NCBI RefSeq assembly: GCF_055900595.2
Contig: NZ_CM148325.1
Reading direction: 5' to 3' (one strand)
DNA: 64,000 nucleotides
Below, in pieces: positions 35,789-51,368 of this stretch. Each line of letters opens with the position of its first letter. The stretch's first letter is position 1. Under the pieces are notes generated by a model. That model searched no databases, was not told the DNA's origin, and worked only from the letters and a program-made list of their open reading frames with translations. The position numbers and the translations under genes were made by a program.

Positions 35789-35803
35789 TACATGTTGTAG
35801 CAA

Positions 35804-35838
35804 CCCCGCACTGATTATGAAGAATAATCAGTGCGGGG
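35804..35838 (+). terminator. Hairpin terminator after gss
   Basis: 15-bp stem CCCCGCACTGATTAT/ATAATCAGTGCGGGG with 5-nt loop, followed by an A/T-rich tract. Confidence 0.5.
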
Positions 35839-36079
35839 ATTAATCAAAATATTCAATATTTATATATTCAAATATTTATTCATTTCATGTGTGAATGTAT
35901 TAACCAGTGGAATGCCTGTGTTTTGATTATTTCTAAAGGTTTTGAATGAATGCTTATTATCTGATACACAAGAAATAACACTCTTTTTATCGTTAAAAAA
36001 TGATATTTCACTTTGCCCACGCCGTTAAAGTCACTGATAATGCGTCCGTTCGTAAATTCAAAATGGCGTAATCTAATAT

Positions 36080-37579
36080 ATGCTAAATTTATTTGTTGGC
36101 CTTGATATATACACAGGGCTTTTGTTATTACTTGCTCTGGCATTTGTGTTGTTCTACGAAGCAATCAATGGTTTTCATGACACGGCGAATGCGGTGGCAA
36201 CCGTTATTTATACTCGTGCCATGCAACCACAACTTGCTGTGGTGATGGCGGCATTTTTTAACTTTTTTGGCGTATTGCTAGGCGGACTTAGCGTTGCCTA
36301 TGCCATTGTCCATATGTTACCAACCGATTTGCTATTGAATATGGGGTCAACCCACGGTCTGGCGATGGTCTTTTCCATGCTGCTGGCGGCGATTATCTGG
36401 AACCTGGGAACGTGGTTCTTTGGTTTACCTGCTTCCAGTTCGCACACCTTGATTGGCGCGATTATCGGCATCGGTTTAACCAACGCGCTGTTAACCGGCT
36501 CATCGGTGATGGATGCGTTAAACCTGCGTGAAGTGACCAAGATTTTCTCCTCGCTGATTGTCTCCCCCATCGTCGGCCTGGTCATTGCAGGAGGACTGAT
36601 TTTCCTGCTGCGCCGTTTCTGGAGCGGGACGAAAAAGCGTGACCGCATTCACCGTATTCCTGAAGATCGCAAAAAGAAAAAGGGCAAACGTAAGCCGCCA
36701 TTCTGGACGCGTATTGCCCTCATTGTTTCCGCTGCGGGCGTGGCATTTTCGCACGGTGCGAATGACGGGCAGAAAGGGATCGGTCTGGTGATGCTGGTAC
36801 TGGTGGGGATTGCCCCTGCTGGTTTCGTCGTCAATATGAATGCGTCTGGCTATGAAATTACCCGTACCCGCGATGCAGTGACTAACTTCGAACACTATCT
36901 GCAACAGCATCCTGAACTGCCGCAGAAGTTGATCGCGATGGAACCGCCATTGCCTGCGGCATCGACTGATGGCACGCAAGCGACGGAGTTTCACTGTCAT
37001 CCGGCAAATACCTTTGATGCGATTGCGCGCGTTAAAACGATGCTGCCAGGCAATATGGAAAGTTACGAGCCGTTAAGCGTGAGTCAGCGCAGCCAGCTGC
37101 GCCGCATTATGCTGTGCATCTCTGATACCTCCGCGAAGCTGGCGAAACTGCCAGGCGTCAGTAAAGAAGACCAGAACCTGCTGAAAAAACTGCGCAGCGA
37201 TATGTTAAGCACCATTGAGTACGCTCCGGTGTGGATCATCATGGCAGTAGCTCTGGCGCTCGGCATTGGCACCATGATTGGCTGGCGTCGTGTAGCGATG
37301 ACCATCGGTGAGAAGATTGGTAAGCGCGGCATGACGTATGCGCAAGGCATGGCGGCACAAATGACGGCGGCAGTGTCTATCGGCCTTGCCAGTTATATTG
37401 GGATGCCCGTCTCCACAACACACGTACTCTCATCTGCCGTAGCAGGGACGATGGTGGTGGACGGCGGTGGGTTACAGCGTAAAACGGTAACCAGCATCCT
37501 GATGGCGTGGGTATTTACTTTACCGGCGGCGATTTTTCTTTCTGGTGGGTTGTACTGGATAGCATTGCAGTTGATTTAA
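36080..37579 (+). CDS. pitB: Low-affinity inorganic phosphate transporter PitB
   Basis: 499-aa polytopic ORF of the PiT family; the gss-adjacent paralogue in E. coli is pitB. Confidence 0.88.
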
Positions 37580-37590
37580 CCTTCCTGAAA

Positions 37591-37626
37591 ATGCCCGGTC
37601 CTGGCGATCGGGCATTTCCATTTTTG
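37591..37626. terminator. Hairpin between convergent pitB and yghT
   Basis: ATGCCCG...CGGGCAT stem followed by TTCCATTTTT. Confidence 0.4.
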
Positions 37627-37627
37627 A

Positions 37628-38320
37628 CTAGTGATAACCACGCGCGGTCATAAAATCCGTAATCGCTTTTTCTGCATCAACCAGCACCTTTTCCAGTGGC
37701 TGATTAGCATCGATATCAACCAGTTGTGCACCGCCAAAGGTTAACTGTGGCGTTATGGCAATCTTCCTCGCCAGCGATTCCCGTTTATGGTCGGGTTTAC
37801 GCGCGCAGGCAACTTCAAGGTCAACATTGAGTTTGATGACCAGATCAGGTTTATGGCTCGCCATCCAGTGAAACGCTTTACGTTCCTGGCTTGCCAGCCA
37901 TGAGACAAACCGGCCGCCTTCAACGTTAGGCGGGAACACTGTACCATCGTAAGCGCCAGGAATTTGGTCCTGAGGATAACGGTCGGTTAGAACAATTAAC
38001 CCGCGACGACGACAGGCAAGCATATGACGAAAGCGCAGTAAGCGACGGGCGACAAACGCTGTAATTACCAGCGCCGGAACTGGCCCAGGCAATTTTTTTG
38101 CTGTTTTCACCTGATTTCGTTCAATTGTTTTATGTAAGGATTTTCCCATCAACGGTAATTTTGTCACTGCACGACCGACATTTCCGGCCTGTTTTCCTAA
38201 ATGAACTCTTTCGGCAGCACCATATTTTTCGACAACGGTAATGAGATGTTCACACACCGTTGACTTGCCTGAACCATCGCTACCAATAACGGCAATTAAT
38301 GGAGGTGTTATTGACTGCAT
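37628..38320 (-). CDS. yghT: P-loop kinase-like protein YghT (thymidylate-kinase-like fold)
   Basis: 230-aa ORF; Walker [13 protein letters not shown]-type motif (LTDRYPQ); paralogous to the next two genes. Confidence 0.8.
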
Positions 38321-38493
38321 GAATATATCCTTTAATTTAAATATCCATTAAAAATATTTATTTGGTTAATATGTTTTTATGAAAGCGTAATTCAGGTCAA
38401 TGTCACAATTAACCATTGTCACAATAAGGTTGAACGGATATTCTGAGCACGGACCACGTAATATTCAATACATTATTTGCTGCCGGGTTTTTC

Positions 38494-39207
38494 GTGAATC
38501 AACGTAATATGTCAATAATTAATTCCACGCCAGTGCGTGTTATTGCCATTGTAGGATGTGATGGTTCAGGTAAATCGACCCTCACGGCAAGCCTGGTAAA
38601 TGAACTGGCAGCAAGAATGCCAACAGAACACATTTATCTCGGGCAATCGTCCGGGCGAATTGGCGAATGGATTTCACAGCTCCCTGTTATTGGCGCACCT
38701 TTTGGGCGTTATTTGCGAAGTAAAGCGGCACATGTGCACGAAAAGCCCTTAACACCGCCTGGCAATATTACTGCGCTGGTTATCTATCTGCTTTCCTGCT
38801 GGCGGGCGTACAAGTTTCGCAAAATGTTGTGTAAAAGCCAGCAAGGCTATCTGCTCATCACCGACCGCTACCCGCAGGTTGAAGTGCCGGGTTTTCGCTT
38901 TGATGGCCCGCAATTGGCAAAAACCACGGGCGGTAACGGCTGGATAAAAATGTTAAGGCAGCGCGAGCTGAAGCTGTACCAATGGATGGCGTCTTATTTG
39001 CCCGTATTGTTGATTCGTCTTGGCATTGATGAACAAACCGCGTTTTCGCGTAAACCTGACCATCAACTGGCGGCGTTACAGGAAAAAATCGCCGTTACGC
39101 CGCAACTGACATTCAATGGCGCCGGGATCCTTGAACTGGATGGTCGGCAACCAGCCGATGAAATTATGCAAGCGTCACTACGCGCAATTCACGCCGCGCT
39201 TTCCTGA
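38494..39207 (+). CDS. yghS: P-loop kinase-like protein YghS
   Basis: 237-aa ORF; Walker A GCDGSGKST, ITDRYPQ; paralogue of YghT/YghR. Confidence 0.8.
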   Translation: MNQRNMSIINSTPVRVIAIVGCDGSGKSTLTASLVNELAARMPTEHIYLGQSSGRIGEWISQLPVIGAPFGRYLRSKAAHVHEKPLTPPGNITALVIYLLSCWRAYKFRKMLCKSQQGYLLITDRYPQVEVPGFRFDGPQLAKTTGGNGWIKMLRQRELKLYQWMASYLPVLLIRLGIDEQTAFSRKPDHQLAALQEKIAVTPQLTFNGAGILELDGRQPADEIMQASLRAIHAALS

Positions 39208-39238
39208 TCACCAAAATGGATAGGGGATGATTTAACGA

Positions 39239-39997
39239 ATGGATGCACTACAAACACAAACTGTTAATAGTACAACCGTGCCGCAGCCCAACTACATTCC
39301 GGGGCTGATTGCGGTGGTCGGGTGTGATGGCACCGGTAAATCCACGCTGACCACCGACCTGGTGAAATCGCTGCAACAACACTGGCAAACCGAGCGCCGC
39401 TATTTGGGGCTGCTCTCCGGCGAAGACGGCGACAAAATCAAACGATTGCCGTTGGTTGGCGTCTGGCTGGAACGGCGACTGGCGGCCAAATCCTCGAAAA
39501 CCCAAAGCATGAAAACCAAATCTCCAGCGCTATGGGCGGCGGTGATTATGTACTGCTTCTCGCTGCGAAGAATGGCGAATCTACGCAAGGTTCAGCGACT
39601 GGCGCAAAGTGGCGTTCTGGTGGTCAGCGATCGCTTCCCGCAGGCTGAAATTTCGGGCTTTTATTATGACGGACCGGGGATTGGCGTCGAGCGCGCGACC
39701 GGGAAAATCAACCAATTTCTGGCGCAGCGCGAGCGACAGTTATACCAACAAATGGCGCAGTATCGTCCTGAATTAATCATTCGTTTGGGGATTGATATTG
39801 ATACTGCCATCTCCCGCAAGCCTGACCATGACTATGCCGAGCTGCAGGACAAAATCGGCGTCATGTCGACGATTGGCTATAACGGCACAAAAATTCTTGA
39901 GATTGATTCCAGAGCGCCCTACAGCGAAGTGCTGGAACAGGCACAGAAGGCGGTTTCTCTGGTTGCCATCGTTTCTGACCGCCGAAGTTTAACTTAA
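39239..39997 (+). CDS. yghR: P-loop kinase-like protein YghR
   Basis: 252-aa ORF; Walker A GCDGTGKST, VSDRFPQ; paralogue of YghS/YghT. Confidence 0.8.
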   Translation: MDALQTQTVNSTTVPQPNYIPGLIAVVGCDGTGKSTLTTDLVKSLQQHWQTERRYLGLLSGEDGDKIKRLPLVGVWLERRLAAKSSKTQSMKTKSPALWAAVIMYCFSLRRMANLRKVQRLAQSGVLVVSDRFPQAEISGFYYDGPGIGVERATGKINQFLAQRERQLYQQMAQYRPELIIRLGIDIDTAISRKPDHDYAELQDKIGVMSTIGYNGTKILEIDSRAPYSEVLEQAQKAVSLVAIVSDRRSLT

Positions 39998-40042
39998 GGC
40001 TGGCGGGATACTTTTTACTATCAACGATAAGGTCAGGCTGAA

Positions 40043-41392
40043 TTGGCGGGTTTTAACATCAAACATTGGTTTGCAGATGGCGCGTTTCGCACCATTATTC
40101 GCAATAGCGCCTGGTTAGGCTCCAGTAATGTCGTGAGCGCTTTGCTGGGTCTGTTGGCGCTCTCGTGTGCCGGTAAAGGGATGACGCCCGCCATGTTTGG
40201 CGTACTGGTGATTGTGCAATCGTACGCCAAGTCGATCAGCGATTTTATTAAGTTTCAGACATGGCAGTTGGTGGTGCAGTACGGAACGCCAGCCTTGACC
40301 AACAATAATCCGCAGCAATTTCGCAATGTCGTCTCATTTTCCTTCTCGTTGGATATCGTCAGCGGCGCGGTGGCGATTGTCGGCGGCATTGCCTTACTCC
40401 CTTTTCTTTCCCATTCATTAGGTCTGGATGACCAAAGCTTTTGGCTGGCAGCGCTGTATTGCACGCTCATTCCTTCAATGGCTTCCTCCACGCCGACCGG
40501 CATTCTGCGTGCGGTAGATAGCTTCGACTTAATTGCTGTACAGCAGGCGACGAAACCTTTTCTGCGCGCAGCGGGGAGCGTCGTTGCCTGGTATTTTGAC
40601 TTTGGTTTTGCGGGTTTTGTTATTGCCTGGTACGCCTCGAATCTTGTTGGCGGCACCATGTACTGGTGGTTTGCCGCACGTGAATTACGCCGCAGAAATA
40701 TCCATAACGCGTTCAAATTGAATCTGTTTGAGTCTGCCCGACACATCAAAGGCGCGTGGAGTTTTGTCTGGTCAACCAACATTGCCCATTCCATCTGGTC
40801 GGCGCGTAATTCGTGCAGCACAGTGTTGGTGGGGATCGTGTTAGGACCCGCTGCCGCCGGGTTATTTAAAATCGCCATGACATTCTTCGACGCCGCCGGA
40901 ACGCCAGCGGGTTTACTAGGTAAAAGTTTTTACCCAGAGGTGATGCGTTTAGATCCGCGCACCACCAGACCGTGGTTGTTAGGCGTGAAGTCCGGTTTAC
41001 TGGCGGGCGGAATCGGTATTCTGGTGGCGCTCGCGGTGTTGATCGTCGGCAAGCCGCTCATTTCGCTGGTGTTTGGCGTTAAGTATCTCGAAGCGTATGA
41101 CCTGATTCAGGTGATGCTGGGCGCAATTGTGATTTCGATGCTGGGCTTCCCACAGGAGTCATTGCTATTGATGGCGGGAAAACAGCGTGCTTTTCTCGTG
41201 GCGCAAACCATCGCCTCAATCGGCTACATCGTATTGCTGTTCATGTTCTGTCATCTGTTTGGCGTGCTGGGGGCTGCATTTGCTTACTTCGCTGGGCAAT
41301 GTCTGGATGTGGTGCTCTCGCTAATTCCAACCTTAAAGGCATTTTTTCAGCGCCATTCCTTGCTTTATAACGCAGCCGGAGAGAAATCCTGA
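40043..41392 (+). CDS. yghQ: Polytopic membrane protein YghQ (MOP/Wzx-like flippase family), full length here
   Basis: 449-aa ORF with about 12 predicted TM helices; TTG start as given by the ORF track (true start uncertain); stop overlaps the next ORF (TGATG). Confidence 0.75.
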   Translation: MAGFNIKHWFADGAFRTIIRNSAWLGSSNVVSALLGLLALSCAGKGMTPAMFGVLVIVQSYAKSISDFIKFQTWQLVVQYGTPALTNNNPQQFRNVVSFSFSLDIVSGAVAIVGGIALLPFLSHSLGLDDQSFWLAALYCTLIPSMASSTPTGILRAVDSFDLIAVQQATKPFLRAAGSVVAWYFDFGFAGFVIAWYASNLVGGTMYWWFAARELRRRNIHNAFKLNLFESARHIKGAWSFVWSTNIAHSIWSARNSCSTVLVGIVLGPAAAGLFKIAMTFFDAAGTPAGLLGKSFYPEVMRLDPRTTRPWLLGVKSGLLAGGIGILVALAVLIVGKPLISLVFGVKYLEAYDLIQVMLGAIVISMLGFPQESLLLMAGKQRAFLVAQTIASIGYIVLLFMFCHLFGVLGAAFAYFAGQCLDVVLSLIPTLKAFFQRHSLLYNAAGEKS

Positions 41393-42228
41393 TGATGAGA
41401 AAATATTTCCCGCTTGAGGCTAGCGAGCGTCTATTTGTTGCGATTGAAGAAGATGATGTCGTTGATGCACAGGTCAGTTTGCCGCCGACTATCGCACTAA
41501 GTTGTACCACCGAAATCATCCATGATAATTACGCGTTATGCCTGAAATTCTGGCTGGATGGTGTTAATCGTCAGGAGCTACTGCGTTTAATCCGCAAACA
41601 GGCGAAAGGCGATGAGCTGACGACAGACGAGCGCAAAAAGTATAAATACATGCGAGCGCGCTACAAGCATCTGCGCTTTGCGCAACGGCTGTATTTAAAG
41701 AAGCATCAGGCCGGATTTTTATTCGGCAAAACGACCGTTTTTTTGGGGCGTTTTCAGGACGGCTTTCGTAACGGTAAGAAAAATATTGTGTCGTATTACG
41801 GCAACCTGTTACGGGTTTATTTAAGCTCTCCGGTCTGGTCGTTGGTGAACTATTCATTACGCCATAGCCAGTTAGAAAGCGTAAGCGGTTTTATTGCCTA
41901 TCGGCAAAAGCAAATGCATACCCTGAAAGAGATAATTGCCAAACCGCGACTAACTGGCAGGGAATTTCATGATGTGCGAAAAATCATCAGCCAGCAGGTT
42001 TCTTATTACGACACCCTAAGATCGCTTGATCCTGAAAATAAAGAGGCGTTACAGATTTCCCGCTTCCTCGCCGCCATTAATGGCCTGATGGGGGATAAAC
42101 ACGACGACATGGTGGCGGATGATATGGAAAACCGCCAGTCGTATGATGCACCGATGGCGCTGGATAGCGATATTCGTCAGCGCTTAGAACTGCTGATTTC
42201 GCGTTTCCCACTCTATCCGGAGCAATAA
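41392..42228 (+). CDS. Hypothetical soluble protein (278 aa), coupled to yghQ
   Basis: Start overlaps the yghQ stop; stop overlaps the next start (TAATG); no motif recognised by eye. Confidence 0.6.
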   Translation: MMRKYFPLEASERLFVAIEEDDVVDAQVSLPPTIALSCTTEIIHDNYALCLKFWLDGVNRQELLRLIRKQAKGDELTTDERKKYKYMRARYKHLRFAQRLYLKKHQAGFLFGKTTVFLGRFQDGFRNGKKNIVSYYGNLLRVYLSSPVWSLVNYSLRHSQLESVSGFIAYRQKQMHTLKEIIAKPRLTGREFHDVRKIISQQVSYYDTLRSLDPENKEALQISRFLAAINGLMGDKHDDMVADDMENRQSYDAPMALDSDIRQRLELLISRFPLYPEQ

Positions 42229-42788
42229 TGCCATCTCGTTGGATTTTCGCTCTGATCATCGCACTCTTAGCGCCAGGCGCGGTGGCACACAATTTCGTCA
42301 CTGGTAAAACGGTTACCCCTGTTTATATCCAGGAAGGCGGTGAGTTGCTTCTGAATAGCGACGACGAAATTCACTACCAAAAGTGGAACAGCACACAGCT
42401 GGCGGGAAAAGTCCGCATTATTCAGTATATCGCCGGGCGTAAGTCGGCGAAGAAAAAGAACTCACTGTTAATTAAAGCGGTTGAAGCGGCAAACTTTCCG
42501 CAGGATCGTTTTCAGCCCACCACCATTGTGAACACCGATGATGCCATCTTTGGTACCGACTATTTTGTCGTTGGCAAAATCGAAAAAAATAAACGCCGCT
42601 ATCCATGGGCGCAATTCGTTATTGACGGCAATGGACAGGGACGTGTTGCCTGGCGCTTGCCGGAGCAGAGTTCAACCATTCTGGTGCTGAATAAAAACGG
42701 GCAAATTCAGTGGGCAAAGGACGGCAGCCTGACGCCGGAAGAGGTAGATCATGTCATTGCGCTGGCGCAGAAGCTGATCAATGAATAA
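42228..42788 (+). CDS. Secreted/periplasmic protein (186 aa), possibly YtfJ-like
   Basis: Cleavable signal peptide MPSRWIFALIIALLAPGAVAHN; translationally coupled to the upstream ORF. Confidence 0.6.
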   Translation: MPSRWIFALIIALLAPGAVAHNFVTGKTVTPVYIQEGGELLLNSDDEIHYQKWNSTQLAGKVRIIQYIAGRKSAKKKNSLLIKAVEAANFPQDRFQPTTIVNTDDAIFGTDYFVVGKIEKNKRRYPWAQFVIDGNGQGRVAWRLPEQSSTILVLNKNGQIQWAKDGSLTPEEVDHVIALAQKLINE

Positions 42789-42818
42789 AAAACTCAAAGG
42801 ATTGAGGGCGTTAGTGAG

Positions 42819-43889
42819 ATGAAGCTGGTTGAACACTACATCATGCGTGGTACGCGCCGTCTGGTGCTGATTATCGTCGGTTTTCTGATCTTTATTTTCG
42901 CCAGCTACTCCGCACAGCGTTATCTGACCGAAGCGGCAAATGGGACATTAGCTCTTGATGTTGTGCTGGATATCGTTTTCTACAAAGTGCTGATTGCACT
43001 GGAGATGCTGTTACCTGTTGGACTATATGCTTCAGTTGGCGTGACGCTAGGGCAAATGTATACCGACTCGGAAATTACCGCTATCTCCGCGGCGGGGGGC
43101 AGTCCGGGACGCTTGTACAAAGCCGTTCTTTATCTGGCGATACCGCTAAGTATTTTTGTCACCCTTCTGTCGATGTATGGTCGTCCGTGGGCTTATGCGC
43201 AGATTTATCAACTGGAGCAACAGTCACAGTCGGAGCTGGATGTTCGCCAGTTGCGGGCAAAGAAATTTAACACTAACGATAACGGACGAATGATCCTTTC
43301 GCAGACGGTTGATCAGGATAATAATCGCCTGACTGACGCGCTGATTTATACTTCTACTGCCAATCGAACCCGCATTTTCCGCGCCCGTTCGGTTGATGTG
43401 GTTGACCCATCACCTGAGAAACCGACCGTTATGTTGCATAACGGGACCGCCTATCTTCTCGATCATCAGGGGCGTGACGACAACGAACAGATCTACCGTA
43501 ATCTGCAATTACATCTGAATCCGCTGGATCAAAGCCCTAACGTCAAACGCAAAGCAAAATCGGTCACGGAGCTGGCGCGCTCCGCCTTTCCTGCCGATCA
43601 TGCCGAACTGCAATGGCGACAAAGCCGTGGCCTGACAGCATTGTTGATGGCGCTGCTGGCCATTTCATTAAGTCGGGTAAAACCGCGGCAAGGGCGATTT
43701 TCAACGTTATTGCCACTGACGTTGCTGTTTATTGCCATTTTTTATGGCGGCGACGTCTGCCGTACGCTGGTGGCTAACGGCGCGATTCCCCTCATTCCTG
43801 GTTTGTGGTTAGTACCCGGACTCATGCTAATGGGCCTGCTGATGCTGGTCGCACGCGACTTCTCTTTGCTGCAGAAATTTTCCCGATGA
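42819..43889 (+). CDS. LptF/LptG-family (YjgP/YjgQ) permease paralogue, first of a pair
   Basis: 356-aa ORF with N-terminal MKLVEHYIMRGTRRLVLIIVGFLIFIF resembling LptF/LptG; predicted TM helices flanking a periplasmic domain. Confidence 0.7.
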   Translation: MKLVEHYIMRGTRRLVLIIVGFLIFIFASYSAQRYLTEAANGTLALDVVLDIVFYKVLIALEMLLPVGLYASVGVTLGQMYTDSEITAISAAGGSPGRLYKAVLYLAIPLSIFVTLLSMYGRPWAYAQIYQLEQQSQSELDVRQLRAKKFNTNDNGRMILSQTVDQDNNRLTDALIYTSTANRTRIFRARSVDVVDPSPEKPTVMLHNGTAYLLDHQGRDDNEQIYRNLQLHLNPLDQSPNVKRKAKSVTELARSAFPADHAELQWRQSRGLTALLMALLAISLSRVKPRQGRFSTLLPLTLLFIAIFYGGDVCRTLVANGAIPLIPGLWLVPGLMLMGLLMLVARDFSLLQKFSR

Positions 43890-44965
43890 ATGTTTTCAGC
43901 CGCTATTTAATCCGTCATCTCTTTCTCGGTTTTGCCGCCGCCGCAGGGCTATTGCTGCCGCTTTTTACCACCTTCAACCTGATTAACGAACTGGATGATG
44001 TCGGCCCGGGCGGTTATCGCTGGACCCAGGCGGTGCTGGTGGTGCTGATGACCTTACCGCGCACACTGGTCGAACTTTCGCCGTTTATCGCCTTATTGGG
44101 AGGGATTGTCGGCCTGGGGCAACTATCGAAAAACAGTGAGCTTACCGCCATTCGCAGCACGGGGTTTTCTATCTTCCGTATTGCACTGGTGGCGCTGGTT
44201 GCCGGGATATTGTGGACTGTTTCGTTAGGCGCGATAGATGAGTGGGTGGCGTCGCCATTGCAGCAACAGGCGCTGCAAATCAAATCGACTGCCACCGCGT
44301 TGGGGGAGGACGATGACATTACCGGCAATATGCTTTGGGCCAGGCGCGGTAATGAATTTGTGACGGTGAAATCGCTGAACGAGCAGGGCCAGCCTGTGGG
44401 CGTGGAGATATTTCATTATCGCGACGATCTCTCGCTCGAATCCTACATTTTTGCACGCAGTGCCTCCATTGAAGACGACAAAACATGGATCCTGCATGGT
44501 GTGAATCATAAAAAATGGTTGAATGGCAAAGAAACGCTGGAAACATCAGATAATCTTACCTGGCAATCGGCCTTCACCAGTATGAATCTTGAAGAGTTAT
44601 CGATGCCGGGAAATACTTTTTCTGTCCGTCAACTTAATCATTACATCCATTATTTGCAGGAAACTGGGCAACCCAGCAGCGAATACCGCCTTGCACTGTG
44701 GGAAAAACTGGGACAACCCATCCTGACCCTGGCGATGATTTTGCTGGCTGTGCCGTTTACCTTTAGTGCCCCGCGTTCGCCTGGGATGGGTAGCCGTCTC
44801 GCTGTAGGCGTCATCGTGGGCTTACTTACCTGGATCAGCTATCAAATCATGGTCAATCTGGGATTGCTATTTGCGTTGAGCGCACCTGTTACCGCGCTCG
44901 GTTTACCGGTAGCGTTTGTGCTGGTGGCGTTGAGCCTGGTGTATTGGTATGACAGACAACATTAA
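43886..44965 (+). CDS. LptF/LptG-family (YjgP/YjgQ) permease paralogue, second of a pair
   Basis: ATG at 43886 overlaps the upstream stop (ATGA); MNVFSRYLIRHLFLGFAAAAGLLLPLFT... typical LptG-like N-terminus; 359 aa. Confidence 0.7.
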   Translation: MNVFSRYLIRHLFLGFAAAAGLLLPLFTTFNLINELDDVGPGGYRWTQAVLVVLMTLPRTLVELSPFIALLGGIVGLGQLSKNSELTAIRSTGFSIFRIALVALVAGILWTVSLGAIDEWVASPLQQQALQIKSTATALGEDDDITGNMLWARRGNEFVTVKSLNEQGQPVGVEIFHYRDDLSLESYIFARSASIEDDKTWILHGVNHKKWLNGKETLETSDNLTWQSAFTSMNLEELSMPGNTFSVRQLNHYIHYLQETGQPSSEYRLALWEKLGQPILTLAMILLAVPFTFSAPRSPGMGSRLAVGVIVGLLTWISYQIMVNLGLLFALSAPVTALGLPVAFVLVALSLVYWYDRQH

Positions 44966-44999
44966 ACCCGCCGTGGCGCAACACCACAGCGGGCTCACA

Positions 45000-46172
45000 T
45001 TACTGCTTCAGAGTAGCGAACGCTTGAATGATGGCATCAATTTGCTCACGACTGTGGGCAGCGTTTACGCTACAGCGCAGCAGCGTGATGCCTGCAGGCG
45101 CGGCAGGTGGCAGGATAAGATTCACATAAACGCCCAGCGAAATAAGCTCGCGCCAGATGCGTAAACCTTCCTCTTTCGAACCGATTATTACTGGCACTAC
45201 CGGGCTAATATGTGAACTTAACTCATAATCCAGTTTTTGCAGACCGTCATACAGATGGTTGGCATTATCCATCAGCTTTTGCCGCAACTCTGGTTGTGAG
45301 GCAATGGTTCTTAACGACGAGCGCACGGTCGCAATGCAGGACGGAGAAGGAGAGGCGGTAAAAATATACGGGCGGCTGCCGTAGCGCAACACTTCCATCG
45401 CTTCCGAACCGACAGCAAAACCGCCAATCGAGGCCAGACTTTTACTGAAGGTACCAACGATAATATCCACATCATCTTCAACGCCAACGGCTTCAGCCAG
45501 TCCGCGCCCCGTTGCGCCTAACACGCCAAACGAATGCGCTTCATCGACAATCAAATAACCACCGAGACGACGTTTGATATCAACAATTTCCGCCAGCGGC
45601 GCAACGTCACCGAGCATACTGTAGATGCCTTCAACGATGATAATCGCCTCTTTTGCCCGTTCACCGAGGCGAACCATGCGCCGTTCCAGATCTTTAGCAT
45701 CGTTATGGCGGAAACGAATAATTTCCGCGCCACCGAGAGAACAGGCGTCATAAATACTGGCGTGGCTGTCGGCATCCAGTAACACCACGGCGTTATGGTC
45801 GGCAAGTGCGCTGATGACGCCTAAATTAGCGGTATAACCGGTTGAAAAAACGATAGCGGTAGGGCGATTAAAAAACTCGGCGATCTCTTTCTCTAACGCC
45901 AGATGCGGCGCATAACTGCCGTTTGCCATACGAGAACCGGTGGTGCCGGTGCCTTGGGCCGCTAACGCTGCCTGACCTTCGGCGATGGCATCATGATTAA
46001 AGGTTAAACCGAGATAATTATTGGTCCCGGCCAGAATCACTTTTTTATTGCCGATCCGACCTTCGGTGGCGGAATACACTTCATCAATACAGGTGCCAAA
46101 CGGTGTTAACCCGTTGTCACTAAATTGCAGTCGCTCGCCAGCAAGGCGCGCATATTTATCGTATAGCCCCAT
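45000..46172 (-). CDS. PLP-dependent alpha-oxoamine synthase, serine-palmitoyltransferase-like
   Basis: 390-aa ORF with PLP-lysine motif GTFSKSLASIGG and DEAHSFG motif characteristic of SPT/KBL/BioF enzymes. Confidence 0.8.
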   Translation of the reverse strand: MGLYDKYARLAGERLQFSDNGLTPFGTCIDEVYSATEGRIGNKKVILAGTNNYLGLTFNHDAIAEGQAALAAQGTGTTGSRMANGSYAPHLALEKEIAEFFNRPTAIVFSTGYTANLGVISALADHNAVVLLDADSHASIYDACSLGGAEIIRFRHNDAKDLERRMVRLGERAKEAIIIVEGIYSMLGDVAPLAEIVDIKRRLGGYLIVDEAHSFGVLGATGRGLAEAVGVEDDVDIIVGTFSKSLASIGGFAVGSEAMEVLRYGSRPYIFTASPSPSCIATVRSSLRTIASQPELRQKLMDNANHLYDGLQKLDYELSSHISPVVPVIIGSKEEGLRIWRELISLGVYVNLILPPAAPAGITLLRCSVNAAHSREQIDAIIQAFATLKQ

Positions 46173-46420
46173 TATTTATTCTCCAGCCATGGAAGTAGTG
46201 TTTCCATTAATTGCGCAGGGGTTTTGACATCCAGCAGAATATTAATAGGAATGGAAATATCGAATCTGTCTTCCAGCATCATTAAGAGATCCATCACTTT
46301 GATCGACTCCAGGCCAAGATCGTTGACGAGATCGCTGTCGGGCTTAATTTCCACACCGTTTTCGACCAAATCCTGTAAACAGGAAAGGATGTAATCCATT
46401 ACTATTTCACGATTTACCAT
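46172..46420 (-). CDS. Dedicated acyl carrier protein
   Basis: 82-aa acidic ORF with phosphopantetheine-site motif DLGLESI; stop overlaps the SPT-like gene start. Confidence 0.75.
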   Translation of the reverse strand: MVNREIVMDYILSCLQDLVENGVEIKPDSDLVNDLGLESIKVMDLLMMLEDRFDISIPINILLDVKTPAQLMETLLPWLENK

Positions 46421-46451
46421 AGAAACGTTAACACACCTTTAAACAAGACAA

Positions 46452-47366
46452 TCAAAATAGCCCGTTGCGTAATGCGTGTTCCAGGCTAATCCCGGGAAAC
46501 CAATTAATATCTTCAGAAATACGGTTATTACTTGCTGACCAGTCGGCGTGGGTTAATTCACGGATTTTCGAGCGGGTCAGCATAGGTTCTTTACCTGCCA
46601 GGCGACTCAACGCGGTACTGATATCCGCAAGGCAGGTGAGTACCGACAGAGGAATACCAACCATTCGAACGGAACCGCAACGGGCGTCGGCGGCAAGTTG
46701 CTGTACGCGTTGCCAGTCATAGCCGCCGGCGACGCCATCGCATAATTCATAGGTTTGCGTCTGTACAGTTTCGGCGCTTAACCACTGCCCCACGGCTTGC
46801 GCGAAATCGGTGACGTGCAGGAAAGAGAGCTGTGTATCTGGCGCACCAAGTCGTGGCAGCAGGCCGCGCAGCATCCAGTCAAACAGCGGTTTTAACTCTT
46901 TATCGCCGGGACCATACACGGCTGTCGGGCGAAAAATGCCCAGCGTAATTTCGTCAGCCATTGCGGTCAGTCGTTGTTCGGCGACGTGTTTGGAATTTGC
47001 GTACCAGGAGAGTTCGGGATGACGCGCCGCCAGCGAAGAGATAAACAGAAAACGTTGGCAAAAGCCGCTCTCTTTTGCCGCTTGCATCAGGCGCAGGCTG
47101 CCGTCAACGTTACAGCGGGTAAAAATCTCTTCTTTGTGTCCGCGCACTTGTCCGGCGCAATGGACCACCGCGCTGGCTCCGGCAACCAGTTCGCTAAGCG
47201 AATGTGTATCTTCCAGCGAACCGCGCACCCAGATGAGATTATCATTGACGTGAGCGCGGGCAGTACGCGTCAATGCGCGAACGTGAAAGCCGCGGGCGAG
47301 CAGGTTATCGATAATATATTTACCGATAAACCCGGTAGCGCCCGTCACCGCGACAGTTTGATTCAT
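46452..47366 (-). CDS. NAD(P)-dependent epimerase/dehydratase-family reductase (extended SDR)
   Basis: 304-aa ORF with Rossmann motif VTGATGFIGKYI and YxxxK motif (YANSK); start overlaps the FAAL stop (ATGA). Confidence 0.75.
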   Translation of the reverse strand: MNQTVAVTGATGFIGKYIIDNLLARGFHVRALTRTARAHVNDNLIWVRGSLEDTHSLSELVAGASAVVHCAGQVRGHKEEIFTRCNVDGSLRLMQAAKESGFCQRFLFISSLAARHPELSWYANSKHVAEQRLTAMADEITLGIFRPTAVYGPGDKELKPLFDWMLRGLLPRLGAPDTQLSFLHVTDFAQAVGQWLSAETVQTQTYELCDGVAGGYDWQRVQQLAADARCGSVRMVGIPLSVLTCLADISTALSRLAGKEPMLTRSKIRELTHADWSASNNRISEDINWFPGISLEHALRNGLF

Positions 47367-49084
47367 GCCAGGGATTCCTGCACATGAAGGCTTGCAGCAT
47401 AAGCCTTCTGATAACGTTTTTTCGCTTCCGCACGGGCAGGCTTGCCGGAGGACGTTCGGGGAATACTGTGGGGCGGCAACAGATCGATAGCCGCGGTTAC
47501 GCCAAATTCGCTTTGGATCCGTGCTGCCAGTGCGTGGATAAGCTGCCCACGACGTTCTTCGTCGCTGATCCTACACTGGATCTGCAGAATGATTTTTTCC
47601 TGGGCGGTAACAAAAGCAATCGCATCGCCAGAATGAATTTCCGGTTCCTGTTCCGCAATATATTCAATATCCTGCGGCCAGATATTACGGCCACGAATAA
47701 TAATCAGATCTTTAATGCGTCCGGTGACATACAGATAACCGTCCAGCAGATAACCGAGGTCGCCGGTATCTAACCAGCCCGTCGCGGCAATCTCGTCTTG
47801 CGAAACCTGGTCGCCAAAGTAACCGCTCATCAGGCTGGGGCCGGAGATGCAAATATGGCCTACCACACGTTCCGCGACCGGCATACCTGCTTCATTGCGG
47901 ATTTCAATGCCATGTTCCGGCAACGCTTTACCGCAGTTGACGAAAGTCGATACGGCGCGTGTTTCAGCACCCGGCGCGACGGCTTTGCCCTGATATTCAA
48001 GGATGTCGCGATCCACTTCGTTAACCACAACCCCGGAGGCTTCATCAGAGAAGCTGACAGCCAGCGCATTTTCTGCCAGTCCGTAGCACGGCATGAACGT
48101 TTTATCGTCAAAGTTAACCTGACGGAAACATTCAGCGAATTGATGGAGTTGTTCTGCGGAGATGGGTTCTGCACCAATACCAGCGACGCGCCAGCAGGAA
48201 AGATCCAGTTCAGCGAGATCTTTTTCATTCACGCGGCGCTGGCACAATTCATAGCCAAACGGCGGCGCAACGGAAACGGTGCCGCGATTTTTACTGATCA
48301 ATTTAAGCCATTGCAGAGGACGCATGGCAAAATCCTGAGTGCGCAAATAATCTACTGAAAGCTGCGTGGCGACGGGGGTCAGGAGAAAGCCGACCAGTCC
48401 CATATCATGGTAGAAAGGCAGCCAGGAGACGCAGCGGTCGCCAGGGCGTAATTTAATGCCATCGTGGCTTATAGCACGTAGATTAGCCATCACTTCGCGA
48501 TGGGTGATAATGACGCCACGGGGAAAACGGGTGCTGCCGGAGGTGTACTGGAGGTAGGCGATATCGTTCGGAACTGGATGCTGGAGTGCAACATCGGCTT
48601 CCGGTAATGCCTTAAACCAGGCGTGGCTTAAAACATGTAATTCGGGGTTGTTATGCGTAGCGGCATTGACCAGTGGCAACCACTCATCACCAGTGATAAT
48701 GGCTGCGGGCTGGCAACTTGCCAGTAAACCCTGCAGTTTGGCGCTCCAGGAATCCCGCTGACCGATGCCCATTGGAATCGCCAACGGGACGGCGACTAAG
48801 CCGGCATACTGGCAGGAAAAAAAAGCCTCTACGAACCCGCTACTGGTTTCGGCAATCAGCGCCACGCGATCGCCTTTTTTCAGGTTCAGCGATAACAACC
48901 GCTTCGCACCAGCTTCGGCACGCGCTTTTAACGTCTGATATTCCAGTTGATCTTCAAGTTGGCAACGTCTGTCATAAAAATTCATTCCGGCGCTACTCAG
49001 AGCGGCGTAGTCCAAAGCATCAACCAGCGTTGGAAAATCGGCATAGCGCATAGGTAGGGAATGCGTAAAGATTTTATTAGACAT
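47363..49084 (-). CDS. Fatty acyl-AMP ligase / acyl-ACP synthetase (FAAL-type adenylating enzyme)
   Basis: Start set at ATG 49084 (MSNKIFTHSLPMRYADFPTL...; the ORF track's 49111 start is TTG); AMP-binding motif YTSGSTRFPRGV resembling FadD32-type FAALs. Confidence 0.8.
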   Translation of the reverse strand: MSNKIFTHSLPMRYADFPTLVDALDYAALSSAGMNFYDRRCQLEDQLEYQTLKARAEAGAKRLLSLNLKKGDRVALIAETSSGFVEAFFSCQYAGLVAVPLAIPMGIGQRDSWSAKLQGLLASCQPAAIITGDEWLPLVNAATHNNPELHVLSHAWFKALPEADVALQHPVPNDIAYLQYTSGSTRFPRGVIITHREVMANLRAISHDGIKLRPGDRCVSWLPFYHDMGLVGFLLTPVATQLSVDYLRTQDFAMRPLQWLKLISKNRGTVSVAPPFGYELCQRRVNEKDLAELDLSCWRVAGIGAEPISAEQLHQFAECFRQVNFDDKTFMPCYGLAENALAVSFSDEASGVVVNEVDRDILEYQGKAVAPGAETRAVSTFVNCGKALPEHGIEIRNEAGMPVAERVVGHICISGPSLMSGYFGDQVSQDEIAATGWLDTGDLGYLLDGYLYVTGRIKDLIIIRGRNIWPQDIEYIAEQEPEIHSGDAIAFVTAQEKIILQIQCRISDEERRGQLIHALAARIQSEFGVTAAIDLLPPHSIPRTSSGKPARAEAKKRYQKAYAASLHVQESLA

Positions 49085-49454
49085 ATACACCACGAAAAAA
49101 TTGGATATCAAAAATAAAATGACAATAATGCGGTGGATTATATAGGCATAAAAGATAAATGAGATAGTATTTTCATCAGTGTGAAAATGAACATTGATTT
49201 AAATAATGAGTTTGAGTTTTTTGTTTTTATTGTGAATGATATTTAATTTATGAATGTATTAAGAAGAAGCCTTGTCCGGTCGCCTTAAATCGACAAAAGG
49301 CATTGTGGCGCTTCTGTGTAGTCTCTGACCTTATCGTAATCATTAATAAATGCTATTTATTCGTCGTTTGTATTCATTGGGTTGATTATTAAGGTGCCGT
49401 TCGTTGCTGTTGCAACCTGTTTGTCACCGTTAATTATTTGTTACCCACAGAACT
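49085..49454. promoter_or_regulatory. AT-rich divergent intergenic region (probable promoters for the FAAL operon and yghO)
   Basis: 370 bp of strongly AT-rich sequence with poly-A/T tracts between divergent genes; no individual promoter element is called. Confidence 0.4.
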
Positions 49455-50597
49455 ATGGAATGCGATCTGCTGATGATTAAAATTGAAAAAGTAATTAATA
49501 AAAATGACCTTAAGGCATTTATCGCTTTTCCGTCATCACTTTATCCCGACGATCCAAACTGGATACCCCCTTTATTCATTGAACGCAACGAGCATTTGTC
49601 TGCGAAAAATCCGGGGACGGACCATATCATCTGGCAGGCGTGGGTGGCAAAAAAAGCCGGGCAGATAGTTGGGCGAATTACCGCGCAAATCGATACCTTG
49701 CACCGTGAGCGTTACGGTGAAGATACCGGTCATTTCGGCATGATTGACGCCATTGATGATCCGCAGGTTTTTGCCGCGTTGTTTGGCGCAGCGGAAGCGT
49801 GGTTGAAGTCACAAGGTGCAAGTAAGATCAGCGGTCCTTTCAGCCTGAATATCAATCAGGAAAGCGGATTACTGATTGAAGGTTTCGATACACCACCCTG
49901 TGCGATGATGCCGCACGGTAAACCGTGGTATGCCGCGCATATTGAACAATTGGGTTATCACAAAGGCATTGATTTACTAGCGTGGTGGATGCAGCGAACC
50001 GATCTCACTTTCTCTCCGGCGCTAAAAAAACTGATGGATCAGGTGCGTAAGAAGGTGACCATTCGCTGCATCAATCGCCAGCGGTTTGCCGAAGAGATGC
50101 AGATCCTGCGTGAGATTTTCAACTCTGGCTGGCAGCACAACTGGGGATTTGTGCCGTTTACCGAACATGAATTCGCGACTATGGGCGATCAACTTAAATA
50201 TCTGGTGCCGGACGATATGATCTACATCGCTGAGATTGATTCTGCACCCTGCGCGTTTATTGTTGGCTTGCCAAACATCAACGAGGCGATTGCCGATCTG
50301 AACGGATCGCTCTTTCCCTTCGGCTGGGCAAAATTGCTGTGGCGTTTAAAAGTCAGCGGTGTGCGAACTGCGCGAGTACCGCTGATGGGCGTGCGGGACG
50401 AGTATCAGTTTAGCCGCATCGGCCCGGTGATTGCGCTGTTATTGATTGAAGCCTTACGCGATCCGTTTGCCCGCCGGAAGATCGATGCGCTGGAAATGTC
50501 ATGGATCCTCGAAACCAATACAGGCATGAATAACATGCTGGAACGCATTGGGGCAGAGCCGTACAAGCGTTACCGATTGTATGAAAAGCAGATTTGA
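49455..50597 (+). CDS. yghO: YghO, acyl-CoA N-acyltransferase-like protein, apparently full length
   Basis: 380-aa ORF (alternative start at ATG 49473); recognised as the full-length counterpart of the K-12 yghO remnant. Confidence 0.7.
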   Translation: MECDLLMIKIEKVINKNDLKAFIAFPSSLYPDDPNWIPPLFIERNEHLSAKNPGTDHIIWQAWVAKKAGQIVGRITAQIDTLHRERYGEDTGHFGMIDAIDDPQVFAALFGAAEAWLKSQGASKISGPFSLNINQESGLLIEGFDTPPCAMMPHGKPWYAAHIEQLGYHKGIDLLAWWMQRTDLTFSPALKKLMDQVRKKVTIRCINRQRFAEEMQILREIFNSGWQHNWGFVPFTEHEFATMGDQLKYLVPDDMIYIAEIDSAPCAFIVGLPNINEAIADLNGSLFPFGWAKLLWRLKVSGVRTARVPLMGVRDEYQFSRIGPVIALLLIEALRDPFARRKIDALEMSWILETNTGMNNMLERIGAEPYKRYRLYEKQI

Positions 50598-50603
50598 TGG
50601 CAG

Positions 50604-51368
50604 TCACCCCTGCTTCATCTCCAGCGGCACCGCCGAGCGAATCAAATGGTGGCCTTCCAGCTCGATATCGTGGAGATTCTTTTTCACGGTCCGCACATGA
50701 TCGCGTGCTGCGCGCTGGGCGACGTGCGGCAGCCGCTGCAACACCGCGTTGTAGATCCGCGCATGCTGGCGATCGATCTGCTTTTTTTGCTGTGGTCGAT
50801 GGTAGAGATTATTTACGCTGGCAAACACTGAATTAAACATCAGATCGGTCAATGATTGCAGCGTAAACACCAACACCTGATTGTGAGAAGCCTGACAAAT
50901 GGCGAGATGGAAAGCGTGATCCAACTGCGCATGTTCGATCAGCGAAATCTCTTTGTTGTTCTCACTGGCGGCGAGCATTTTTTCATAACAGCGGGTTATC
51001 ACAACAAAATCAGCCTGGGTTCCCAGCGTTGCCGCAAGCCTTGCCGATTCCCCCTCCAGCAATGCGCGAACGTCGAGCAGATCGTACAGCGTTCGCGGCT
51101 GCGTGCTGAACAGATGAATTAGCGGGCTGGTATCCTGCACCCGATTAAGCCGTGCGACACGAGAATCGCGACCCTGCGCTGTTTCAATAATCCCGCGCCC
51201 GCGCAGCACGGTCAGCCCTTCACGCAGTGCGGAGCGTGAGAAGCCGAGCTTTTCACACAGTCGACGTTCCGAGGGAAGCGGCTGACCGACCTTCAGTACG
51301 CCGTCGATAATTAACCGTTCGATACTCTCTGCAACCACTTCGCAAATAGGGCGACGTTCATCTTTCAT
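50604..51368 (-). CDS. glcC: GntR/FadR-family glycolate operon activator GlcC
   Basis: Start at ATG 51368 (MKDERRPICEVVAESIERLII..., 254 aa). Confidence 0.95.
   Translation of the reverse strand: MKDERRPICEVVAESIERLIIDGVLKVGQPLPSERRLCEKLGFSRSALREGLTVLRGRGIIETAQGRDSRVARLNRVQDTSPLIHLFSTQPRTLYDLLDVRALLEGESARLAATLGTQADFVVITRCYEKMLAASENNKEISLIEHAQLDHAFHLAICQASHNQVLVFTLQSLTDLMFNSVFASVNNLYHRPQQKKQIDRQHARIYNAVLQRLPHVAQRAARDHVRTVKKNLHDIELEGHHLIRSAVPLEMKQG

Follow-up and report, generated by a model that had tools for sequence, protein, structure and literature searches.

A thirteen-gene locus of Escherichia coli predicted to make and export a sphingolipid, and its partial deletion in K-12

Organization of the pitB–glcC interval

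The window, i.e., the whole stretch of 64,000 nucleotides of DNA that was analyzed, is 100% identical to the corresponding region of E. coli KY 1497 (NZ_AP019803.1), and genes were called from the list of open reading frames (ORFs) together with the PGAP annotation of that strain. Positions 37628–50597 contain 13 intact genes, bordered by pitB to the left and by glcC to the right. Both sources support the initial annotation in placing kinase-like genes, a flippase gene, LptFG-like permease genes, a serine palmitoyltransferase (SPT) operon and yghO contiguously between these neighbors. The block is organized into four transcription units: yghT; yghS–yghR–yghQ–CHAD-like gene–ytfJ-like gene (ytfJ2)–lptF2–lptG2; aasR–cerR–acpR–spt; and yghO.

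The left border is formed by pitB (36080–37579, plus strand), which encodes a low-affinity phosphate transporter and neighbors yghT in several genera. A hairpin with a 12-bp stem, a terminator-like site, is located between the convergent pitB and yghT genes (37589–37617). yghT (37628–38320, minus strand) encodes the first of three P-loop kinase paralogs, with a thymidylate-kinase fold (PGAP, profile match and AF2/Foldseek). The AT-rich region of 173 bp between the divergent yghT and yghS genes (38321–38493) is presumed from the gene arrangement to carry promoters, and includes one promoter-like match at 38416–38444. The numbers of promoter-like and terminator-like matches in the region do not exceed those in shuffled controls; the placement of the yghT and yghS promoters is therefore based solely on the gene arrangement. 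The two long hairpins at convergent junctions are the sole terminator-like sites of note.

The seven-gene operon, on the plus strand, opens with yghS (38494–39207) and yghR (39239–39997), encoding kinase paralogs 2 and 3 (PGAP, profile and motifs), followed by yghQ (40043–41392) for a MOP-family (Polysacc_synt) flippase, recognized by its profile and multiple hydrophobic segments. Next are the gene for a CHAD-fold helical protein, annotated as 'hypothetical' (41392–42228; probable start, 41404), and that for a YtfJ-family protein, whose signal-like hydrophobic N-terminal segment suggests a periplasmic location (42228–42788). The operon ends with lptF2 (42819–43889; TIGR04407, 317 bits) and lptG2 (43886–44965; TIGR04408, 307 bits), which encode second LptF-type and LptG-type ABC permeases, respectively. 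A hairpin with a 16-bp stem at the convergent lptG2/spt junction (44963–44997) is the strongest terminator-like site of the region.

The SPT operon is on the minus strand and consists, from its promoter-distal end, of spt for serine palmitoyltransferase (45000–46172), acpR for a specialized acyl carrier protein (46172–46420), cerR for an NAD(P)-dependent reductase of the SDR/epimerase family (46452–47366) and aasR for a fatty acyl-AMP ligase-type acyl-AcpR synthetase (47363–49051). An AT-rich intergenic region (49052–49454; GC about 0.42), which is absent from K-12, separates aasR from the divergent yghO (49455–50597, plus strand; probable start, 49473).

The GC content of the island genes ranges from 0.41 to 0.55, mostly 0.47 to 0.55, and is near the values of the flanks; in KY 1497, no transposase or integrase gene is annotated at the block. 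The term 'island' used in the initial annotation is loose, as there is neither a compositional anomaly nor a mobility gene in that strain; in Escherichia, the block is ancestral and has been repeatedly lost.

Features of the encoded proteins

Spt scores 595.8 bits against the SPT model NF047599 (equivalog cut-off, 500), the BioF and Kbl models remaining below their own cut-offs, and its sequence contains the PLP-site motifs TFSKS, DEAH and SHAS. The model that Spt matches best is of the betaproteobacterial type. acpR is directly upstream of spt in the same operon, with its stop codon overlapping the spt start at 46172, and its product has the same accession (WP_000248097.1) as in BL21(DE3). 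AasR scores 869 bits against NF006624 (cut-off, 600). aasR and cerR share the operon with acpR–spt; CerR has family-level matches only and is equated with Caulobacter crescentus CC_1164 in passages of PMC9386255. YghO has no match in Pfam, NCBIfam or PDB in searches with single sequences and profiles, the best being a GNAT chain at E = 1.1, and is always found within the locus in Enterobacterales. YghO is predicted to be a ceramide synthase (N-acyltransferase) from the literature, in which it is equated with bCerS/CC_1154 (passages of PMC9386255), and from gene context.

According to passages of the published study, BL21 ECD_02850–02854 are five clustered ceramide genes including yghO, AcpR (ECD_02853) bears 4'-phosphopantetheine and is acylated by its cognate AasR, and Spt yields 3-oxo-sphinganine with a preference for acyl-AcpR; ceramide-like spots were seen in BL21 in work that relied on over-expression (Padilla-Gomez et al., 2022, PMC9386255). 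The reading of the block as a lipid locus in the initial annotation is thereby borne out and sharpened to that of a sphingolipid/ceramide locus. Its view that the function has gone unstudied does not apply to AasR, AcpR and Spt, which were assayed in 2022 with proteins of E. coli BL21(DE3), a strain with the intact block. The passages of PMC9386255 cover five genes, and the other eight (yghT, yghS, yghR, yghQ, the CHAD-like gene, ytfJ2, lptF2 and lptG2) do not appear in them.

The three kinases score 25.4, 24.9 and 31.8 bits against the thymidylate kinase model TIGR00041, far from its cut-off of 83.25 bits. The AF2 model of YghT (pLDDT, 80.7) has thymidylate kinases as its top Foldseek matches (TM about 0.6; 19–23% identity), relative to which it contains an extra 40-residue insert of low confidence. 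The Walker A, DR[YF]PQ and RKPDH motifs are invariant. The P-loop NMP-kinase fold, Walker A, DR[YF] and a basic lid-like motif are common to thymidylate kinase and YghT/S/R, whereas the latter are three conserved paralogs within a lipid operon. The PGAP name 'dTMP kinase' for YghS and YghT is almost certainly an over-annotation. A PPK2-like or LpxK-like identity was dropped, as the top profile and Foldseek matches are thymidylate and adenylate kinases only. Fusions of the kinase domain to MOP flippases exist and tie the kinase to the flippase; the family is also fused to GT4 glycosyltransferase and nucleotidyltransferase domains, and these latter fusions need not be related to sphingolipids.

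YghQ and the flippase encoded in an alphaproteobacterial cassette share 49% identity; YghQ also belongs to the InterPro family IPR002797, as does Caulobacter CC_1166. The CHAD-like protein has no match in Pfam, even at E ≤ 10, or in NCBIfam, and was resolved by fold search alone as a two-bundle helical CHAD fold with conserved basic residues. CHAD domains are polyphosphate-binding helical bundles, and those of Ricinus (6qv5) and E. coli YgiF (5a61) are 8–18% identical to this protein, which differs in standing alone in a lipid operon and in having no Pfam CHAD match. The YtfJ-family protein scores 210.8 bits against TIGR01626 (cut-off, 151) and has a hydrophobic N-terminus; PF09695 is found in its orthologs. 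These five genes (for the three kinases, the CHAD-fold protein and the YtfJ-family protein) are conserved and uncharacterized, and their roles are deduced from fold and neighborhood only.

LptF2 and LptG2 pass the LptF/G equivalog cut-offs and retain the coupling-helix motifs SE(I/M)T and SEL, respectively. LptG2 matches PDB LptG entries at E of about 1e-43, and the score of LptF2 against the LptF of 6mhu is only 93 bits, indicating that LptF2 is a divergent paralog. No ABC ATPase gene is annotated from pitB to glcC. The names 'LptF/LptG' for these two proteins overstate what is known of them.

Conservation, loss and the K-12 deletion

The whole block is present in about 75% (75–80%) of 5426 complete E. 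coli genomes, including BL21(DE3), in which all 13 genes are intact, and the spt operon is kept by about 80% of complete genomes other than K-12 derivatives. The core is absent from about a quarter of the complete genomes, indicating that the locus is dispensable. Losses occurred independently in K-12, in O157:H7 and in at least four further truncation patterns. Carriage of the block on plasmids was rejected, as the matches proved to be mislabeled chromosomes, one non-mobilizable 354-kb record and one Rahnella megaplasmid.

The statement in the initial annotation that K-12 carries a yghO remnant and a shorter yghQ split by IS5 is correct by comparison, except that yghO is no small remnant. K-12 retains yghT, yghS and yghR, and its yghQ ends after about 355 of 449 codons (last matching window position, 41110). 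A 1195-bp IS5 follows, and homology restarts 40 nucleotides into yghO, so that 8384 bp of the window (41111–49494) are absent from K-12. All that yghO itself has lost is its promoter and its first 13 codons; the start codon given by PGAP falls within IS5. Thus the intact gene set of the window is not shared by K-12: next to the IS5, nine genes have been lost together with the yghO promoter. As the IS5-associated deletion starts in the 3' end of yghQ and reaches into the first codons of yghO, K-12 would be unable to make the lipid. The identical junction is shared by 347 genomes, and those listed are without exception laboratory K-12 derivatives; the K-12 loss is an accident of the laboratory lineage, an 8.4-kb deletion beside IS5. 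In K-12 studies, the truncated yghQ and the IS5-started yghO are treated as ordinary genes.

E. albertii and E. whittamii carry the block at this same chromosomal position. In comparison with E. albertii, dN/dS is 0.03–0.10 for all 13 genes and dS is broadly uniform. These dN/dS values, for a block at a shared site, indicate that the 13-gene locus is maintained by selection. Within Enterobacterales, 20 named genera have the full set of 13 genes in one place, arranged in at least four different orders and with ORF lengths constant across genera. A recent mosaic of heterogeneous origin, considered from the outset as a counter-reading of the block, was rejected in view of this synteny, the uniform divergence and the location shared with E. 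albertii and E. whittamii. pitB adjoins yghT in Escherichia, Pseudocitrobacter, Hafnia, Citrobacter amalonaticus and C. youngae, and the genes further left differ; like the island genes, E. coli pitB shares about 84% identity with the Pseudocitrobacter copy and with the Hafnia copy. This equal identity suggests that an older transfer of the locus among Enterobacterales is likely, and pitB, by this association only, possibly belongs to the transferred unit.

Related gene strings are present beyond Enterobacterales. In Rhodanobacteraceae, a single string comprises the kinase genes, the spt operon, yghQ and the CHAD-like gene; the spt operon lies between the kinase genes and yghQ in Luteibacter, Rhodanobacter and Dyella. 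Sphingomonadales have a kinase–yghQ–CHAD cassette without spt inside 10 kb, and in two of these alphaproteobacterial loci the cassette lies beside genes for a CpgB-type DAGK and a PMT_2 protein. The idea of a constant set of three lipid kinases (a DAGK plus two P-loop kinases in Alphaproteobacteria, or three P-loop kinases in Enterobacterales) is not supported, as a DAGK gene is near the cassette in only these two loci (10-kb flanks).

Proposed pathway and comparison with known systems

The block probably serves, as a chromosomal locus, to synthesize a sphingolipid and to bring it to the outer membrane (estimated probability, about 0.8). In the proposed pathway, AasR charges the dedicated carrier AcpR with a fatty acid, and Spt joins serine and acyl-AcpR to produce 3-oxo-sphinganine. 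YghO, predicted to be of the bacterial ceramide synthase type, would N-acylate this product, and CerR would reduce its keto group, resulting in dihydroceramide. Up to this point, the locus agrees with the pathway in the literature, of which AasR, AcpR and Spt were assayed with the BL21 proteins. The seven-gene operon and yghT would then serve in modification and export of the lipid: the three P-loop kinases and the basic CHAD-fold protein may act on the head group, most likely by phosphorylation, and YghQ may flip the lipid across the inner membrane. LptF2G2 would extract the lipid toward the outer membrane by borrowing the housekeeping LptB, since the locus contains no ATPase gene, and the periplasmic YtfJ-family protein might be an accessory factor. 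Points against the pathway are that the literature searched yielded no report of a sphingolipid from wild-type E. coli, that the BL21 work relied on over-expression, that YghO matches no known family in the databases searched and that the locus is dispensable.

Three other readings were weighed against this pathway. The ceramide genes might merely adjoin a separate LPS/polysaccharide module (yghTSR, yghQ, the CHAD-like gene, ytfJ2 and lptF2G2) that builds a glycolipid or LPS variant, as the PGAP names 'lipopolysaccharide biosynthesis protein' and 'LptF/LptG', the LptF/G cut-offs passed, the fusions of the kinase family to GT4 glycosyltransferases and nucleotidyltransferases and the spt-free cassette of Sphingomonadales would suggest. 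This is unlikely, because the 13 genes stay united through the different gene orders of the 20 genera and the spt operon is inserted within the supposed module in Luteibacter, Rhodanobacter and Dyella. Moreover, Sphingomonadales themselves produce sphingolipids, two of their loci including the CpgB-type DAGK and PMT_2 genes, and the Caulobacter sphingolipid cluster includes both LptF2G2 and a MOP flippase.

Somewhat less probable still is a silent, decaying relic that is unexpressed in E. coli and heading for the loss already seen in K-12 and O157:H7. The several independent deletions and the AT-rich divergent control regions, which could be silenced, are in keeping with such decay, and no report of a sphingolipid made by any wild-type E. 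coli, i.e., of a native product, was found in the literature searched. Decay is hard to reconcile with 13 ORFs that are intact in KY 1497 and BL21 and equal in length across genera, with dN/dS values (0.03–0.10) that at their lower end overlap those of flanking housekeeping genes, and with the retention of the spt operon in most genomes other than K-12 derivatives. That the locus makes and exports a soluble long-chain amino-alcohol or signaling metabolite instead of a membrane sphingolipid is highly improbable: the enzyme set would suit acyl-amino-acid condensation in general and Spt scores well against the BioF and Kbl models, yet only the SPT equivalog cut-off is passed, the passages on BL21 describe 3-oxo-sphinganine from Spt and ceramide-like spots, and Lpt-type permeases and MOP flippases handle membrane lipids.

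A bolder version of the sphingolipid pathway can be offered tentatively, with the odds against it. Most natural E. coli and many other Enterobacterales might make a new anionic sphingolipid distinct from the ceramide phosphoglycerate of Caulobacter. The three kinases would build its head group, for instance by phosphorylating ceramide stepwise to a mono-, di- or oligophosphate, with the help of the CHAD-fold protein as a binder of polyanions; the MOP flippase would flip the lipid and LptF2G2/LptB would place it in the outer membrane. MOP flippases flip pyrophosphate-linked lipids. E. coli is usually taught as sphingolipid-free, largely because K-12 lacks the pathway. If the proposal is true, envelope biology based on K-12 has overlooked a lipid of the cell surface that is likely to affect the binding of polymyxin, the barrier function and recognition by the host. 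BL21(DE3), with its intact locus, is a ready experimental host.

The closest known systems are the BL21(DE3) ceramide genes and the sphingolipid cluster of Caulobacter crescentus. ECD_02850–02854 are the same locus as that described here, having yghO, aasR, cerR, acpR and spt in the same order and an AcpR of the same accession (passages of PMC9386255); the main text of that paper nowhere uses the term 'K-12'. The identity of the locus core is thus already published, and the five conserved genes for the kinases, the CHAD-fold protein and the YtfJ-family protein have no known role. In the LPS extractor LptB2FG, the permeases belong to the same families, and the LptB-contacting coupling-helix glutamate motifs are common to LptF2G2, which differs in consisting of second, divergent copies encoded in a sphingolipid locus that has neither lptB nor lptC.

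The Caulobacter cluster CC_1152–CC_1168 has eight functions in common with the E. coli locus, i.e., aasR, cerR, acpR, spt, cerS (predicted for yghO), the MOP flippase (CC_1166), lptF2 and lptG2, and neither locus has its own LptB (Olea-Ozuna, 2024, PMC11324152; Uchendu, 2026 preprint). In Caulobacter, LptF2G2 binds the single LptB, is needed for sphingolipid transport and is indispensable whenever anionic sphingolipid is produced; the same preprint depicts the operons of E. coli UTI89 as homologs (Uchendu, Isom and Klein, 2026). Unlike Caulobacter, E. coli lacks LptC2 and the head-group genes for ceramide phosphoglycerate, i.e., those for the DAGK-type ceramide kinase CpgB, a Tam41-like protein, a CDP-alcohol transferase, two nucleotidyltransferases and a phosphoesterase. 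Profile searches found none of the CPG/CPG2 head-group families among the 13 genes, and a CpgB-like query had no match in any enterobacterial locus. Instead, the E. coli locus contains three thymidylate-kinase-fold kinases, a CHAD-fold protein and a YtfJ-family protein. As these five uncharacterized genes replace the Caulobacter head-group enzymes, the E. coli lipid probably differs from that of Caulobacter.

Gene content of the block and its truncation in K-12

The window matches E. coli KY 1497 with 100% identity. Thirteen intact genes lie between pitB (36080-37579) and glcC (50604-51368) in the annotation and ORFs of the window, and the contiguous block proposed in the initial annotation stands at precisely its coordinates (37628-50597). 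The gene yghT is on the minus strand; yghS, yghR, yghQ, a gene for a 278-aa 'hypothetical' (CHAD-like) protein, a YtfJ-family gene, and lptF- and lptG-like genes (lptF2 and lptG2) are on the plus strand, with junctions that overlap or span 30-45 nt; the genes for serine palmitoyltransferase (spt), acyl carrier protein (acpR), SDR/epimerase (cerR) and fatty acyl-AMP ligase (aasR) are on the minus strand with overlapping junctions; and yghO is on the plus strand. Long hairpins are located at both convergent junctions (37589-37617 and 44963-44997), and the layout of the block reads as four transcription units. Between gss and pitB (window 35500-36500), GC content dips to some 0.42, a possible left border of a unit comprising pitB and the locus.

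In a K-12 genome (L002), yghT, yghS and yghR are intact and are followed by yghQ, annotated as a pseudogene lacking its C-terminus, then IS5 and then yghO. K-12 corresponds to the window up to 41110, and homology resumes at 49495; a 1195-bp IS5 with terminal inverted repeats fills the junction. The absent segment (41111-49494; 8384 bp) comprises the 3'-terminal 94 codons of yghQ, the entire CHAD-like, ytfJ-like, lptF2, lptG2, spt, acpR, cerR and aasR genes, the AT-rich control region, and the first 13 codons of yghO. The target duplication of IS5 is 4 bp; the 4-mers on either side of the K-12 element are unlike (TTAG vs TTAA), which suggests that sequence beside the element was deleted, and not that IS5 simply inserted. 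The block is thus not intact in K-12, and the shorter yghQ and the IS5 given in the initial annotation are borne out by the junctions, whereas yghO, described there as a remnant, is nearly full length.

The annotated start codon of K-12 yghO falls within IS5, and the first 12 codons of YghO as annotated (L002 8273-9409) are read from the IS5 end. The yghQ-IS5 junction is present in 347 of 5426 complete E. coli genomes, and the matches listed are all laboratory K-12 derivatives. In K-12 studies, the truncated yghQ and the IS5-started yghO are handled as ordinary genes: a chlorhexidine-adaptation study gives many 'SNVs' for yghQ, and an IS5 study describes the element as 'inserted in yghO'. The remaining interest of the locus lies partly in this deletion from the reference strain.

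Distribution and losses in E. coli

With presence defined as coverage of at least 80% of a segment, the whole 14.5-kb query is found in 4045 of the 5426 genomes, the spt operon in 4067, the CHAD-like to lptG2 segment in 4103, yghO in 4529 and yghT, yghS and yghR in 4604, in a set skewed to laboratory and outbreak strains, such that these counts are not population frequencies. The spt operon is kept in about 80% once the 347 K-12-type genomes are excluded, and all 13 genes are intact in BL21(DE3).

Losses of the block in E. coli are independent. In O157:H7 JEONG-1266 (L003 8081-17605), pitB breaks off at nucleotide 1236; remnants of IS3, IS66 and IS1203 and a frameshifted TcdA/TcdB-type (toxin-like) glycosyltransferase pseudogene come next, and the entire locus and glcC are missing. 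In other genomes, the match ends at query position 8059, 5545 or 3931, or yghO-glcC alone is left, and in some, gsp genes are fused to yghT or the CHAD-like gene. A non-mobilisable E. coli record of 354 kb, which bears a plasmid label (NZ_MG591698.1), also contains the locus, and a 468-kb megaplasmid of Rahnella aquatilis (CP042359.1) bears a diverged spt-operon copy.

Conservation of the locus as a unit

E. albertii (L007) has the identical 13-gene order between gss-pitB and glcC-glcD, and E. whittamii and two further Escherichia lineages also match by tblastn. Each of the 13 genes has a dN/dS of 0.03-0.10 relative to E. albertii (flanks, 0.014-0.048). Values of dS range over 0.65-1.45 but are lower towards the right end (acpR 0.17; in window 49455-51368, yghO 0.32 and glcC 0.07), which suggests more recent recombination between the two species there.

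A recent mosaic of heterogeneous origin was the alternative to a single unit. One genome per species was scanned with the CHAD-like protein alignment, using two peptide patterns, and the resulting 67 loci were compared with all island proteins by tblastn. Within Enterobacterales, all 13 genes share a single locus in 20 named genera, among them Pseudocitrobacter, Hafnia, Citrobacter (C. amalonaticus, C. youngae), Serratia, Pantoea, Erwinia, Sodalis, Rosenbergiella, Tatumella, Mangrovibacter, Pluralibacter, Shimwellia, Cedecea, Klebsiella (K. indica) and Rahnella, in at least four distinct gene orders. Luteibacter, Rhodanobacter and Dyella have the arrangement yghT, yghS, yghR, aasR, cerR, acpR, spt, yghQ, CHAD-like, yghO, with the 'accessory' genes interleaved among those for ceramide; Sphingomonadales retain a cassette in which two kinase genes accompany yghQ (49% protein identity) and the CHAD-like gene (hhalign probability 100%). 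That these genes stay together despite rearrangement supports a single functional unit and speaks against a recent mosaic. The two-pattern scan returned no locus from Salmonella, Klebsiella pneumoniae, Enterobacter or Yersinia, which is an absence of detection only. Amino-acid identities to Pseudocitrobacter and to Hafnia are about equal (64-87%) for island genes and pitB alike, which fits older horizontal spread within the order.

The pitB gene (36080-37579) adjoins yghT in five genera (L005, L006, L007, L023 and L043), with different genes beyond, and shares about 84% identity with each of the Pseudocitrobacter and Hafnia copies, like the island genes; this phosphate transporter gene may travel with this gene order. 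In Hafnia paralvei (L006 19785-20513), a 4'-phosphopantetheinyl transferase gene (PF01648), which may serve AcpR, flanks yghO at the place of glcC in E. coli. Pluralibacter (L025, L032) has an extra solitary CHAD-like gene apart from the full locus, and Luteibacter loci have this gene in tandem duplicate. In Luteibacter sp. OK325 (L059 12394-20622), the position held by lptF2G2 in Enterobacterales is taken by an MdtABC-like RND pump operon, which follows the duplicated gene and meets yghO with a one-base end-to-start overlap; the pump may offer the lipid another export route. A PmrAB/QseBC-like two-component system is immediately upstream of the cassette in Novosphingobium barchaimii (L074 4869-6862).

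Sphingolipid synthesis and transport, and five further conserved genes

The locus is an already described sphingolipid synthesis-and-transport cluster, as follows from published work on its ceramide genes and on LptF2/G2 of Caulobacter and UTI89. In one study, E. coli B/BL21 ECD_02850 (yghO, N-acyltransferase) to ECD_02854 (spt) form a clustered five-gene dihydroceramide set, E. coli AcpR was shown experimentally to carry phosphopantetheine and is acylated by AasR, acyl-AcpR is preferred by Spt, and ceramide-like products appeared in BL21 (Padilla-Gomez et al., 2022, PMC9386255). The lipid interpretation in the initial annotation is thereby supported, its core being the ceramide set; the view that the function has gone unstudied needs correction, since three enzymes from BL21 were assayed. 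The Caulobacter cluster includes second LptC, LptF and LptG copies and an IPR002797 flippase (Olea-Ozuna et al., 2024, PMC11324152); its LptF2/G2 bind the single LptB and are undeletable while anionic sphingolipid is made, and UTI89 operons are drawn as homologous (Uchendu, Isom and Klein, 2026 preprint). The E. coli locus has no ATPase gene.

In family searches, Spt (595.8 bits; cut-off 500), AasR (869; 600), LptF2 (317; 230), LptG2 (307; 240) and the YtfJ-family protein (211; 151) exceed their models' cut-offs, YghQ weakly matches MOP flippases, and YghT, YghS and YghR are sub-threshold for dTMP kinase (25-32 bits; cut-off 83). LptF2 and LptG2 diverge from the solved housekeeping proteins (LptF2 scores 93 bits against LptF of PDB entry 6mhu), and both retain the coupling-helix glutamate motifs. 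PGAP labels the pair at 42819-44965 'LPS export ABC transporter permease LptF/LptG', since both clear the equivalog cut-offs, and calls YghS and YghT (37628-39207) 'dTMP kinase' although they reach 25 bits where 83 are required; these names are probably over-annotations propagating through thousands of genomes.

YghT, YghS and YghR are paralogues (32-35% identity), each orthologously conserved across genera, with invariant Walker A, DR[YF]PQ and RKPDH motifs; the YghT model (pLDDT 80.7) resembles thymidylate kinases (TM about 0.6; 19-23% identity). Their P-loop kinase family is large (2514 representatives at E ≤ 1e-3), and its kinase domain is fused in places to a GT4 glycosyltransferase, an uncharacterised nucleotidyltransferase domain or MOP flippases, the last supporting a functional link with the flippase. 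The CHAD-like protein has no Pfam match, and 15 of its Arg/Lys/His residues stay invariant as far as an alphaproteobacterial homologue of 33% identity. The N-terminus of the YtfJ-family protein is signal-like. Interest remains in these five conserved genes and in the E. coli lipid product itself. The Caulobacter head-group set consists of a DAGK-type ceramide kinase, a Tam41-like protein, a CDP-alcohol transferase, two nucleotidyltransferases and a phosphoesterase, and yghT, yghS, yghR, the CHAD-like gene and the YtfJ-family gene have no counterpart in it; the kinases, CHAD-like and YtfJ-family proteins would make or process a putative anionic, phosphorylated head group unlike ceramide phosphoglycerate.
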